Below are positions 3,262 through 6,487 of a stretch of 64,000 nt of DNA, piece after piece. How positions within the stretch are numbered: position 1 is the stretch's first letter; each line of letters starts with the position of its first letter. The stretch is from NCBI GenBank assembly GCA_964429215.1, contig CAYSAY010000003.1, positions 8,369 through 72,368 on the forward strand, written 5' to 3'. This stretch comes from an uncultured Gammaproteobacteria bacterium (GTDB taxonomy: Bacteria > Patescibacteriota > Microgenomatia > UBA8517). The translations under genes and the position numbers were made by a program. Below the pieces are notes generated by a model. The model was not told the origin of the DNA. It did not search any database and saw nothing but the letters and a program-made list of their open reading frames with translations.

Positions 3262-5184
3262 ATGGCTGATAAATACGATGCAAGTCAAATCCAAGTACTA
3301 GAAGGTCTTGAACCTGTCCGAAAAAGACCGGGGATGTACATTGGATCAACTGATTCTAGAGGGCTTCACGAATGTTTAAGAGAAATTATTGATAATTCAG
3401 TTGACGAAAGCTTTGCAGGAACTGCTACAGAAGTCTGGGTACAAATTCATGCTGACGGATCCGCTGAAGTACGAGATAACGGAAGAGGTATTCCTACTGA
3501 TATGCATAAAAGTGGAGTATCTGCACTTGAACTTACCATGACCAAGCTTCATGCCGGTGGTAAATTTGGTGGTGGAGCTTATAAAGTTTCCGGTGGACTT
3601 CACGGAGTTGGAGCATCAGTTGTAAATGCTTTATCTTCATATTTTAGAGTTTGTGTAATCAGGGATAAAAAAGTTTTCTATCAGGAATATAAAAGGGGCG
3701 TACCACTTAAAAAAGTATCAGAAGCAACCGAAAAACAGCTTAGTGAATGGGGAGTAGATCCTAAAATTCAAAAATCTGGAACCATAACTACATTTATGCC
3801 AGATATCGAAATTTTTGGTGATTTGGTATACGAAAAAAACAAAATAAAAAGTTTACTTCGAGACAGAGCCTATTTAGTAGCAAAACTTGCATTTAATTTA
3901 AAGGACCATAGAGATGGTGACGAGGCAAGTTACTATTTTGAGGGTGGAATAAAGTCCCTAGTTGCACACTCCAATAGAGGTAAAAATGTATTAAGCGATG
4001 CTATTTATATTTCAAAGGACGATGGAAATATAAATTGTGAGGTAGCAATTCAATATACTGACGGCTTTAACGAAAATGTTAAGGGGTTTGTCAACGGAAT
4101 TTACACCACTGATGGAGGAACTCATGTTACAGGGTTTAGAACAGCGTTAACTCGATCTATTACTGATTACGTAAAGAAAAATCAGAATGGAAAAGATGAA
4201 ATGTTACTAACTGGAGATGATCTTAAAGAAGGTCTAACTGCTGTAGTTTATGTCAAGATGCCATCAGAGACATTGCAGTTTGAATCTCAAACAAAAGCAA
4301 AACTTAATAATCCTGAAGTACAAGGGTTTGTGGCAGTTTGTGTAAAAGAAGGTCTTGATCAATATTTTGAGGAGCATCCACAAGATGTTAAAAGAATTAT
4401 TGAAAAAGTAACTCTTGCAGCAAAGGCAAGACTTGCAGCACGCGCAGCAAAGGATGCCGTTCTTCGTAAAGGAGCACTTGATGGTGCATCACTTCCTGGA
4501 AAACTTGCTGATTGTCAAAGCAAAGATGCATCAATTTCAGAAATATACATAGTAGAGGGAGACTCAGCAGGTGGTTCAGCAAAACAAGGAAGAGATAGAA
4601 AATTCCAAGCAATATTGCCACTTAAAGGTAAAATTTTAAATACTGAAAGAGCAAGACTTGACACAATTGTAAAATTTGAAGGAATTAAGAATTTAATTAT
4701 TGCCCTTGGTGTCGGCATCGGGGACACAATAAATTATGACAAAATAAGATATCACAGAGTAATTATCATGACTGATGCTGATGTTGATGGAGAACATATT
4801 AAAACATTACTTTTGACTTTCTTCTATCGACATATGCCAGAAGTTATTACAAGGGGATATCTTTATATAGCTCTTCCTCCACTTTACAAAATTACTGTTG
4901 GAAAAGAATCAAACTATGTATTTAACGACGAAGAAAAAGATGAACTAATGAAGAAAATAGGCGAGAAAAAATACGCTATTTCTCGTTACAAAGGTCTTGG
5001 AGAAATGAATGCACAACAACTTTGGGAAACTACTATGGATCCTGCCACAAGAACATTAAAACAAGTAACAATTGATAGCATGGAAGAAGCTTCTAATATG
5101 TTTGAGATGTTAATGGGAGAAGAAGTTCCGCCTCGCAAAAAGTTTATTCAGACCCATGCAAAACTAGCAACTCTAGACATATAG
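3262..5184 (+). CDS. gyrB: DNA gyrase subunit B
   Basis: 640-aa ORF with a GHKL ATPase domain, the Toprim EGDSAGG motif, and a C-terminal tail. Confidence 0.97.
5137..5184. repeat. Left copy of a 48-nt direct repeat (last 16 codons of gyrB)
   Basis: Matches 6440-6487 with 4 mismatches. Confidence 0.8.
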
Positions 5185-5250
5185 TAAGGTGTAACCTTGC
5201 AAGATAGTAAGGTGTAACCTTGTGATTGACTCCACTTGTATAATTAGAAT

Positions 5251-5889
5251 ATGCCTGCCAGAAACTTAATTAAGTTTTATCTACCAAACTCCATTTATCA
5301 TATCTATAATCGAGGGGTTGAGAAAAGAATCATATTTAATGATGATCAAGATTATAATGTGTTTTTATCATACATAAAGGAATATGTTTCACCGGAACCT
5401 CAAGGTGTAACCTTGCGATATAGGGATTTGCATGGAAAGTATTATGAAAAAATAAAGTTGCTGGCTTTTTGTCTAATGCCAAATCATTTTCATTTACTAA
5501 TTAAACAAACTGAAAAGGACAACATCAAAAAATTTACTCAGTCACTATTTACAAGATATACGATGTATTTTAATCATAAATATAAAAGAATAGGAGGATT
5601 ATTTCAAAGCACTTATAAAGCAACAAATGTAATTGACAAAGAACATCTATTATATGTTTCAAAATATATTCATAGAAATCCGACTGAAATTCTAAAACTT
5701 AAAAATTTAACTGATGCATACTCATCTTATTCAGACTATTTAGGACTTACAAATACTTCATGGTTAGACAAAACGATAATACAAGATGAATTTAGTAAAA
5801 GTAGTTATATAAAGTATCACAATATTAAAAATTACAAATATTTTGTAGAAGTTTACAAAGATGACGTGCCACAATATGACTTATTTTGA
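5251..5889 (+). CDS. IS200-like / REP-associated tyrosine (Y1 HUH) transposase
   Basis: Motifs HIYNRGVEK, CLMPNHFHLL (HUH) and TRYTMYFNHKYKRIGGLFQSTYK (catalytic Tyr region) are typical of the Y1_Tnp / RAYT family. The ORF ends in TGA. Confidence 0.8.
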   Translation: MPARNLIKFYLPNSIYHIYNRGVEKRIIFNDDQDYNVFLSYIKEYVSPEPQGVTLRYRDLHGKYYEKIKLLAFCLMPNHFHLLIKQTEKDNIKKFTQSLFTRYTMYFNHKYKRIGGLFQSTYKATNVIDKEHLLYVSKYIHRNPTEILKLKNLTDAYSSYSDYLGLTNTSWLDKTIIQDEFSKSSYIKYHNIKNYKYFVEVYKDDVPQYDLF

Positions 5890-6029
5890 CAATCACAAGG
5901 TTACACCTTGTGATTCTTGTGATTAGTTTGTGGAGAAAAGAGTAGAAATATTAAGTTTATTCAATCTCACAAAATATCAGTGGAACTGGATATTGATATT
6001 GACTTGTAAAAGTATAAAATACTTAAATT

Positions 6030-6395
6030 ATGGAAATCCGTAAAATCACTAGTTTTTTCGGATCGTTGATCGATAATGCACTCGATACATTTGAATTAAT
6101 TTCTGATGAAACAGATAAAGCAAGAATACGTGGATTGCAGAGGAGCCTTGTTGAAGACTTATCTAATACAGATCTAACCTGGATCTCAACTAGTCCACAG
6201 AATTTTTATCAAGCCCTAAGACGACATAATTCACTATCAATTGGTAGAAATATTATTCATGAAATTGCAAGTCTCAAACGACTCGGTGAAACAGCAGAAG
6301 GAATTGACACTTATTTAGCTGACAATTTACCAAACTATAATGAGCAAAAACTTGCAGAGACTTTAACCTCTATAAGAAATGCAGTTGGAAAATGA
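6030..6395 (+). CDS. Hypothetical protein (121 aa) carried inside the REP-bounded segment
   Basis: ORF between the two right-hand REP hairpins, with no recognisable motif. Confidence 0.4.
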   Translation: MEIRKITSFFGSLIDNALDTFELISDETDKARIRGLQRSLVEDLSNTDLTWISTSPQNFYQALRRHNSLSIGRNIIHEIASLKRLGETAEGIDTYLADNLPNYNEQKLAETLTSIRNAVGK

Positions 6396-6439
6396 GAAAA
6401 ATCACAAGGTTACACCTTGTGATTTCTAAGAAAAAAGTT

Positions 6440-6487
6440 TATTCAGACTCATGCAAAACTTGCAACTCTGGATATATAGGATGTTGA
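6440..6487. repeat. Right copy of the 48-nt gyrB-terminus direct repeat (non-coding here)
   Basis: AAAAAGTTTATTCAGACTCATGCAAAACTTGCAACTCTGGATATATAG compared with 5137-5184. Confidence 0.8.

Follow-up and report, generated by a model that had tools for sequence, protein, structure and literature searches.

The closest described counterparts of the locus reported here are the REPtrons, exemplified by the yafM type of Escherichia coli, in which the gene of a REP-associated tyrosine transposase (RAYT; REP, repetitive extragenic palindrome) is bracketed by inverted cognate palindromes that co-evolve with it. The enzymes combine an HUH motif with a single-tyrosine (Y1) fold and carry the class-2 tyrosine signature; their genes occur in low copy number, have diverged paralogues with hairpins of their own and are mostly inherited vertically. 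RAYTs are regarded as domesticated, with genes that are themselves immobile, and their action on DNA in the cell is unsettled. REPtrons have also been noted earlier in species that lack REP families (PMC3733652). Here we describe a Y1 HUH nuclease/transposase gene of the RAYT-like class, with cognate hairpins, located at the 3' end of gyrB in a 64,000-nt stretch of a Woesebacteria-like genome of the candidate phyla radiation (CPR). This whole stretch is referred to as the window; loci of relatives are labelled L0xx and their Y1 homologues P00xx. We propose, with a confidence evenly poised between acceptance and rejection, that the locus is a REPtron-like module that carries its own gyrB terminus and that, in this lineage, has entered the gyrB 3' end on two or more occasions, which suggests that modules of this kind can move.

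Other described systems share parts of this organization. Elements of the IS200/IS605 family (IS608, ISDra2) have the same catalytic fold, and their subterminal hairpins are recognized as single-stranded DNA (ssDNA). The IS608 transposase TnpA cuts the right end 10 nt 3' of its hairpin, and IS200/IS605 elements are not known to produce a target duplication. Integrase-bearing islands and prophages that occupy the 3' ends of tRNA or protein genes are, as in the window, flanked by a direct repeat of the gene 3' end, of which the element-proximal copy completes the gene and the displaced copy retains a once-functional end sequence.

The gyrB gene of the window (640 aa, 3262-5184, plus strand; Pfam DNA_gyraseB, DNA_gyraseB_C, Toprim and HATPase_c) ends on the left copy (H1, 5137-5184, plus strand) of a 48-nt direct repeat. 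The right copy (H3, 6432-6479, plus strand), which begins 6-8 nt past the second right-hand hairpin, is a gyrB terminus that no longer encodes protein although its coding sequence has stayed intact. The Y1 gene (212 aa, 5251-5889, plus strand) lies in the block of DNA between the gyrB body and this former terminus. An earlier reading of the sequence alone (the first-pass annotation) had already described this block, the use of the left copy by gyrB, the non-coding state of the right copy and the four mismatches between them, although it had placed the right copy 8 nt too high, at 6440-6487. It had missed that all four mismatches fall at synonymous third-codon positions (P = 0.003, P being the chance that random substitutions would preserve the protein equally well).

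For the gyrB neighborhood, 10 loci of 8 distinct relatives with gyrB or its 3' end in the stretch were available for comparison. In L002, the closest relative, the two terminus copies differ at 10 nt, with one V/I change and one stop codon swapped for another (P = 2e-5); the approximately 9 synonymous differences in 21 codons correspond to about the distance that separates gyrB of L002 from gyrB of the window (dS, synonymous substitutions per synonymous site, 1.15). In L048, which comes from a different sample and encodes a Y1 protein of 35% identity, the final 24 codons of an SMC gene recur as a 73-nt repeat (4630-4702 versus 5431-5503) around a hairpin-Y1-hairpin unit, and the repeat copies show 11 differences with two conservative amino-acid changes (P = 2e-4). 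The repeat copies differ by 8-15%, and the non-coding copies of the window, L002 and L048 lie in no open reading frame (ORF) and have kept their in-frame stop. Since the differences are almost purely synonymous, the termini diverged as working gene ends and did not decay as copies made in place, contrary to the first-pass view that the insertion had duplicated the gene 3' end. Either the copies diverged in different lineages, or one of them moved with the element while the other stayed on the chromosome; RecA-type recombination through 48-66 nt would be improbable at the divergence of the L002 copies. The best reading is that the last 16-22 gyrB codons are part of the inserted block, and the comparison with L002 suggests that the homologous unit of H1 may begin at 5119 (66 nt). 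At L036, a 233-nt direct repeat (4584-4816 versus 6766-6998), consisting of the first 19 rpoB codons and 177 nt upstream of them, brackets orf308 and a hairpin-Y1-hairpin unit. Its copies were observed to differ mostly within the short coding part, the non-coding part being nearly identical.

The displaced copies also stand at a short distance from the right hairpin, namely 6-8 nt in the window and 9 nt in both L002 and L048; the displaced copy of L036 lies 20 nt past the hairpin, after a partial repeat of the hairpin arm. The junctions of the window, L002 and L048, 6-10 nt 3' of the hairpin, are comparable to the 10 nt of IS608. Moreover, the older window junction and the L002 junction agree in linker and in gyrB position (-66), but are followed by different genes (ORF121 and orf67, respectively), which could reflect either the same site-specific join made twice or a later swap of the downstream gene. 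The hairpin linkers read ...CCTTGTGATTTCTAAG and ...GTGATTTAGTTTAGT. We also observed that, at 5915-5923, 9 nt of the 3' arm of right hairpin 1 are repeated in tandem directly behind that arm (CTTGTGATT CTTGTGATT), and that a comparable partial arm repeat lies immediately ahead of the displaced copy in L036. Unlike in islands and prophages, no tyrosine or serine integrase is present: none of the sole ORFs between gyrB and ppa (Y1, ORF121 and ORF77) matches an integrase family, the only enzyme is the HUH Y1 protein, and the junctions are tied to an ssDNA hairpin.

The order of genes behind gyrB supports the displacement of a former gene end. ORF121 (6030-6395, plus strand), which encodes a conserved small protein and lies between the two right-hand hairpins, had been taken as cargo. 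Its product is 52% identical (E = 9e-43) to that of orf124, which directly follows gyrB in L095. It is preceded by the interval 5916-6029 (plus strand), in which linker A is followed by a decayed former gyrB terminus (~5932-5996) and the native spacer up to ORF121. This decayed third terminus with its spacer, overlooked by the first-pass annotation, can be followed over ~5932-6022 and is still joined to ORF121; the alignment of 5953-6022 with the gyrB end and spacer of L095 scored 44, as compared with 18.5 +/- 3 for shuffled sequences, none of which (0/2000) reached 44. Because of the homology to orf124 and the decayed gyrB end preceding it, ORF121 is to be seen as a displaced resident, the ancestral neighbor of gyrB, and since it marks the old gene end, the Y1 block separates gyrB from its former terminus. 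ORF121 has no Pfam, NCBIfam or PHROG match, and a word-indexed search, in which it matched itself alone, had made it appear an orphan, a view that was rejected when the L095 homologue was found.

The window reads gyrB(H1), hairpins-Y1-hairpin, decayed gyrB end, ORF121, hairpin, H3, ORF77 on the minus strand, and ppa, and L095 reads gyrB, orf124, hairpin-Y1-hairpin and ppa, so that Y1 precedes ORF121 in the window and follows its homologue in L095. The same relation is found between L002, with the order gyrB(H1), orf73, hairpin-Y1-hairpin, 66-nt gyrB end, orf67 and ppa, and L006, with the order gyrB, orf67-like ORF, hairpin-Y1-hairpin and ppa: Y1 precedes orf67 in the former and follows the orf67 homologue in the latter (39% identity over 38 residues, E = 4e-5). 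The displaced gyrB ends of the window and of L002 have thus each kept, as their downstream neighbor, a gene whose homologue stands behind the functional gyrB end of a relative.

ORF 5251-5889 encodes a Y1 HUH enzyme, as the first-pass annotation had concluded from the motifs HIYNRG, CLMPNHFHLL and YTMYFNHKYKRIGGLFQSTYK. It scores 40.7 bits against Pfam PF01797 (Y1_Tnp, TnpA-Y1; cutoff 23), and both the HuH motif NHFH (residues 78-81) and the tyrosine motif YIHRNP (residues 139-144) are invariant in 34 homologues, the family consensus of the latter being YIHxNP. An AlphaFold2 model built from these 34 homologues (pLDDT 83, pTM 0.83) had as its top Foldseek match in the PDB the E. coli RAYT bound to a REP hairpin (4ER8, E = 3.5e-6); the next matches, IS608, ISDra2 and IS200, had E values of about 1e-2 to 1e-1. 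A PDB sequence search with the single protein returned nothing, and with a profile it returned only weak ISDra2 matches (E = 0.02). According to Quentin et al. 2018 (PMC6006769), Y---NP is the class-2, RAYT-like tyrosine signature and Y---Q that of IS200; YIHRNP agrees with the former and differs from the latter. The curated NCBIfam RAYT equivalog NF047646 gave 41.8 bits, below its cutoff of 80. Membership of the RAYTs is partial: the fold, the Y---NP motif, the inverted cognate palindromes and the diverged low-copy paralogues agree with it, and the dispersed REP family, the GT[AG]G foot and a score above this cutoff are lacking.

By motif comparison, the set NHFH / FQ / YIHRNP is nearest to subclass 2.1 of Quentin et al. 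2018, the TIRYT proteins of Di Nocera 2013, with which the window protein shares the pattern NH[YF]H, FQ and Y[IV]HLNP as well as an additional helical C-terminal tail of about 65 residues. TIRYT genes are flanked by terminal inverted repeats with a GGGG[AT][CG]A[CG] core and are reported without REP-like hairpins, whereas the window and its CPR relatives have short perfect hairpins and no long terminal inverted repeats; terminal inverted repeats of the GGGG[AT][CG]A[CG] type were found at the distant metagenome matches L053, L059, L068 and L074.

Five copies of the cognate hairpin are present in the locus, two to the left of the Y1 gene, one inside it and two to the right (all listed by their plus-strand positions). 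The perfect 23-nt form ATCACAAGGT-TAC-ACCTTGTGAT occurs at 5892-5914 and 6401-6423. The first of these had been located correctly by the first-pass annotation and the second 8 nt too high, at 6409-6431. Right hairpin 1 (5891-5915) has an 11-bp perfect stem with a TAC loop and begins 2 nt past the Y1 stop, and right hairpin 2 (6399-6425) has a 12-bp perfect stem and is terminator-like on the minus strand. Folded as ssDNA, they reach -9.9 kcal/mol (z = -4.1) and -11.2 kcal/mol (z = -6.5), respectively. The 13-nt hairpin core AAGGTGTAACCTT is found in inverted orientation at 5186-5198 and 5209-5221, which bears out the earlier report of inverted copies left of Y1. Left hairpin 1 (5186-5207; AAGGT-GTA-ACCTT plus GCAAGATAG) starts 1 nt past the gyrB stop, and left hairpin 2 (5209-5228) is a perfect 20-nt inverted match to 5890-5909 of the right hairpin, so the gene is indeed flanked, in REPtron fashion, by inverted copies of one hairpin. 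The copy inside the Y1 ORF (5397-5419), which the first-pass annotation had missed, is in frame, encodes PQGVTLRY and is identical to left hairpin 1 at 20/22 positions. The 23-mer had 6 matches on both strands as against 0 in any shuffle of the window, and the 13-nt core occurred 5 times (0.14 expected), always within 5186-6418. Although the interpretation offered by the first-pass annotation is only partly supported, the features that it described are all present, and its observation is confirmed.

The hairpins belong to the Y1 gene, since from relative to relative the in-ORF copy changes in step with the hairpins at the flanks. Each relative has its own hairpin sequence at both sides of the Y1 gene, and in 11/12 close relatives the flanking core matches the own Y1 ORF with 0-2 mismatches in 17 nt; cores compared with foreign Y1 ORFs gave a mean of 4.5 mismatches and were never better than with the own ORF. 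The core site lies at +143 to +149 nt of the own ORF in ten relatives, and at +227 in L097, where the N-terminus is longer. In-frame copies of the own hairpin were also seen at L006 6140-6160, at L016 2368-2389 and, at +149 to +227, in L089, L092, L094, L095 and L097. Distant CPR relatives (L036, L045, L047, L052, L057, L058) have an internal copy at +440 to +510 nt, after the tyrosine motif, instead or additionally, and at least one internal copy is present in 17/33 loci. The flanking palindromes are inverted in the window plus 10/12 close relatives, and direct in L018 and L092. Right hairpins 1 and 2 of the window and the right hairpin of L002 are identical over 25 nt. As this identity (25/25) has persisted between two genomes whose synonymous sites are almost saturated (dS 0.6-1.9), the hairpin must be constrained.

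In the AlphaFold2 model, the residues encoded by the in-ORF hairpin (49-56, before the HuH motif) form a surface loop, predicted with low confidence, that lies between helix 32-46 and strand 68-75. In-frame REPs inside tnpA-REP genes are known from subclass 2.4 of Quentin et al. 2018 (group 4 of Bertels; PMC6006769), and the window resembles that subclass in having a cognate palindrome in frame in the nuclease gene, at a peripheral loop. It differs in that the inserts of subclass 2.4 are mostly between the HuH and tyrosine motifs, the window insert being before the HuH motif, and in that the window motif set suits subclass 2.1 better. The in-ORF hairpin and the REP-less REPtron therefore already have precedents. 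For the bracketing of REPtron-like modules by diverged host gene ends, a feature that sets the window module apart from REPtrons, no description was found in the literature.

In every relative examined, at Y1 identities of 68-94%, the Y1 gene lies directly downstream of gyrB; the individual homologues are P0002 (94%), P0003 (77%), P0009 (75%), P0016 (73%), P0012 (71%), P0020 (70%), P0026 (69%), P0019 (69%) and P0025 (67%). No empty site, that is, gyrB followed by ppa without Y1, was found among the loci examined. The gene after Y1 is mostly ppa, and in L089 and L097 a membrane H+-pyrophosphatase gene. Between window and L002, dS was 1.15 for gyrB, 0.72 for Y1, 0.63 for ppa, 1.08 for an RNase H-like gene and 1.88 for malic enzyme; as the Y1 value is within the range of its neighbors (0.63-1.88), Y1 has diverged for about as long as they have. 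The family is also large, with 7,182 homologues detected at E <= 1e-5, and every source-given name among the 120 homologues listed was Woesebacteria, Patescibacteria (CPR) or 'uncultured bacterium'. A metagenome scan with the Y1 protein gave only distant relatives (23-47% identity), and 2.9 million viral contigs contained only 2 distant relatives. Judged from these sequence comparisons, the Y1 gene is an old resident of a kind that is common in CPR and is not a sign of recent activity, and the earlier description of the element as unusual and active or recently active does not hold.

On the explanation that we propose, the module would comprise a class-2 (RAYT-like) Y1 gene with cognate hairpins on both sides and one in frame inside. 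A block reaching from within the last 16-22 gyrB codons to a few nt past the right hairpin would have been joined into the gyrB 3' end, the incoming block supplying the working terminus H1 and the resident terminus being shifted downstream together with its neighbor gene. An older event would have left the decayed terminus attached to ORF121 (~5932-6022), and a younger one the intact non-coding terminus after the second hairpin (6432-6479). The Y1 enzyme would bind the folded hairpin on ssDNA and cut about 7-10 nt 3' of it, like IS608 TnpA at the right end, and the cut end would be transferred into the gyrB 3' region. The left side might be set by a second cut inside gyrB, yielding an excised circle with the gene end, or by homology. 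The analysis shows the anatomy, the conservation, the co-variation, the collinearity with relatives and the intactness of the displaced ends as coding sequence; both the catalysis of the joining by Y1 and the nature of the left-hand step are our inference.

Several points weigh against this explanation. Neither an excised circle nor an empty site nor a polymorphic population was seen, and the four left junctions show no target motif in common. Whereas the end hairpins of IS200/IS605 are direct, those on the two sides of Y1 are inverted with respect to each other, and the orientation of the loop relative to the gene is not constant among relatives, being flipped in L089 as compared with the window. 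Of the displaced termini, the outer one (H3) is intact and the middle one decayed, the reverse of what simple serial insertion predicts; this order needs the extra assumption that a block with the older junction was transferred into a naive gyrB. Y1 divergence roughly follows that of the host genes, therefore its history has been mostly vertical and any mobility must be rare, and according to the literature there is no evidence for mobility of tnpAREP genes (PMC8266576). It should be added that the identity rankings of Y1 and gyrB are not fully congruent.

A more general form of the proposal, which we put forward only tentatively and regard as doubtful, is that the RAYT-type modules of CPR are mobile units that integrate site-specifically and in which a surrogate gene terminus is combined with a hairpin-Y1-hairpin core and, optionally, a small ORF. 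The HUH enzyme would excise such a unit and reinsert it at a fixed 3'-end position of an essential gene, namely gyrB in the window and SMC or rpoB at other loci. This gene would always remain intact, and successive arrivals would be stacked behind it like cassettes. If true, this would be the first evidence of a REPtron-like unit moving and a new, harmless way for an HUH element to target essential genes. The CPR family offers a compact natural record in which the enzyme, its hairpins and junctions at a fixed short distance from a hairpin that split an essential gene from its former end are preserved together. If the enzyme makes these junctions, the locus provides both substrate and product of a RAYT-like reaction in a form open to direct testing, and it shows how an ssDNA element can settle harmlessly at an essential gene's end.

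The main rival to integration by the Y1 enzyme, which we consider rather unlikely, is that a domesticated and vertically inherited Y1 gene sits in a gyrB-ppa recombination hotspot into which related DNA is imported, anchored on the conserved gyrB and joined illegitimately on the other side (homology-facilitated illegitimate recombination); the hairpins would merely be favored sites of breakage or pausing, and Y1 would have no catalytic role. The conserved adjacency of gyrB and Y1 at 68-94% identity and the dS of Y1 within the range of its neighbors agree with such a history, and displaced ends that are intact as coding sequence suit any import from a related genome. Additionally, the interval behaves as a hypervariable hotspot: the lineage-specific small ORFs orf73, orf67, ORF121, ORF77 and a 101-aa ORF in L097 differ between relatives, and in nearly every lineage a different small ORF without detectable relatives was observed there (window 6495-6728, minus strand; L002 2324-2545; L097 495-800, minus strand). 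A possible microhomology of the hairpin 3' arm with gyrB could also be counted in favor, and the left junctions, when inspected for hairpin-arm microhomology, showed nothing consistent. The rival is less at ease with the repetition: a junction 6-10 nt past the hairpin in three independent loci, an identical linker and gyrB position (-66) in two downstream contexts, and the same architecture for distant members at the unrelated SMC and rpoB genes are not expected of random illegitimate joins.

Insertion beside gyrB of a recently active transposon of the IS200/IS605 or RAYT type, with duplication of the gene 3' end, would account for a Y1 enzyme with flanking hairpins in a block bracketed by direct repeats. 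We nevertheless hold it to be improbable, because the Y1 gene occupies the same place behind the same gene in relatives down to 68% identity, is present in a single copy in the 64 kb, and has the tyrosine motif Y---NP and not the Y---Q of IS200 (PMC6006769). The repeats, moreover, differ by 8-15% at synonymous positions only, whereas an unconstrained copy would gather random changes. In addition to being a single-copy locus with inverted end hairpins, the window module lacks tnpB (the ORF list of the window contains no tnpB-like ORF) and is of a family with flanking repeats of 48-233 nt, all of which is unlike IS200/IS605; transposition in that family is not known to be accompanied by target duplication. 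The element is therefore no IS200/IS605 insertion sequence. In Woesebacteria GWC2_33_12 we found three Y1 paralogues, 56-73% identical to the query, at separate loci and each with its own hairpin, which is RAYT-like and not IS-like behavior.

Still less probable is an origin of the repeats in place, in which the segment reaching from the gyrB end to the right hairpin was duplicated in tandem, through unequal crossing-over or through slippage promoted by the hairpin, and then underwent differential deletion and decay. Palindromes reportedly served as join points of tandem duplications in work by Shyamala et al. in 1990, the two right hairpins are identical, and the middle copy of the gyrB end has decayed as a pseudo-copy would. 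Nevertheless, all differences in the non-coding copies of the window (H3), L002 and L048 are synonymous or conservative and the stop has stayed in frame, the L002 copies are about as diverged from each other as gyrB of the window is from gyrB of L002, and the genes that follow differ for each copy, so several extra replacement steps would be required. Finally, that there is no element at all, the hairpins being ordinary intrinsic terminators (both long hairpins are flagged as terminator-like and placed at gene ends) or the repeats an assembly artefact, is scarcely credible, given that the same sequence occurs inverted upstream of Y1 and in frame within the ORF, co-varying with the gene, that the copies are non-identical and hence no collapsed repeat, and that a similar repeat is seen in an independent assembly and in independent samples of a relative (L002, L005). 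This independent assembly, the Logan assembly of run ERR3094292 (L001), reproduces the arrangement, including both repeat copies with their differences, which makes the artefact alternative named by the first-pass annotation unlikely.

The label 'REP', as used in the first-pass annotation, could not be retained for this hairpin. No copy was found in the other 62 kb of the window, that is, outside 5186-6425, even with 3 mismatches or a free loop, the 64 kb being only part of a contig of at least 242 kb. The feet of the hairpins (...ATAG|TAAGGT on the left, ...GACAATCACAAGG / ...AAAAATCACAAGG on the right) contain no GTAG or GTGG, so the GT[AG]G foot of REPs is missing, and NF047646 was not reached; in these respects the window differs from a REPtron. 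In 402 kb of flanks at 33 related loci, 6 extra hairpin copies were detected, 4 of them <1 kb from Y1, and the 19-mer CACAAGGTTACACCTTGTG had one chance match, in an Anaerolinea metagenome-assembled genome, in a set of representative genomes that apparently does not include that of the window. In L023, a relative of 44% identity, palindromes with the outer stem AGCTTC...GAAGCT and variable centers were observed, five of them in 20 kb away from Y1 (2382, 4398, 5239, 6011 and 18569) and others at the Y1 gene (9948, 10507 and 10758); a scan with a fixed core does not pick up these variable palindromes. The L023 lineage thus appears to have a REP-like dispersed family, and the wider family can proliferate hairpins.

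The remaining features of the locus are as follows. A candidate TATAAT box (5239-5244, plus strand), identified by reading the sequences and not called by the promoter scan, lies 6 nt before the Y1 ATG. A similar box, often after TG, was seen 6-7 nt before the Y1 start and right after the left hairpin in all relatives (window, L002, L006, L089, L092, L094, L095). Its position suggests that it could drive a leaderless Y1 transcript, with the hairpin overlying the promoter. Neither Rfam matches in the locus nor PHROG or Pfam matches for the small ORFs were obtained. At L012 (6711-6785), downstream of the current Y1 gene and its two right hairpins, we observed the terminal part of a second Y1 gene (…KQFVEEYKADMPQYEPDM*) and, behind it, a hairpin of another sequence, ATGTGAGGGT-TCA-ACCCTCACAT; this looks like the remnant of an earlier module at the same site.

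ORF77 (6495-6728, minus strand) is a putative lineage-specific ORF that converges on H3 and has no relative in any fetched locus. The right border of the variable interval is conserved and consists of ppa (inorganic pyrophosphatase, PF00719; 6783-7316, plus strand), ahead of which the promoter scan found a promoter-like site at 6748-6776. TTGCAA...TATAAT stretches before ppa in several relatives, initially considered as further decayed gyrB ends, were rejected as such since they match the ppa promoter. In the relatives of 77% identity (L006, L007, L008, L010), the gyrA gene a few kb downstream encodes 1306 aa, including an intein with a LAGLIDADG endonuclease domain; in L002 and L012-L015 the intein is absent (872-876 aa). 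In L089 (4024-6036) and L097 (1619-3631), the soluble pyrophosphatase is replaced in the same place by a non-homologous membrane H+-translocating pyrophosphatase.

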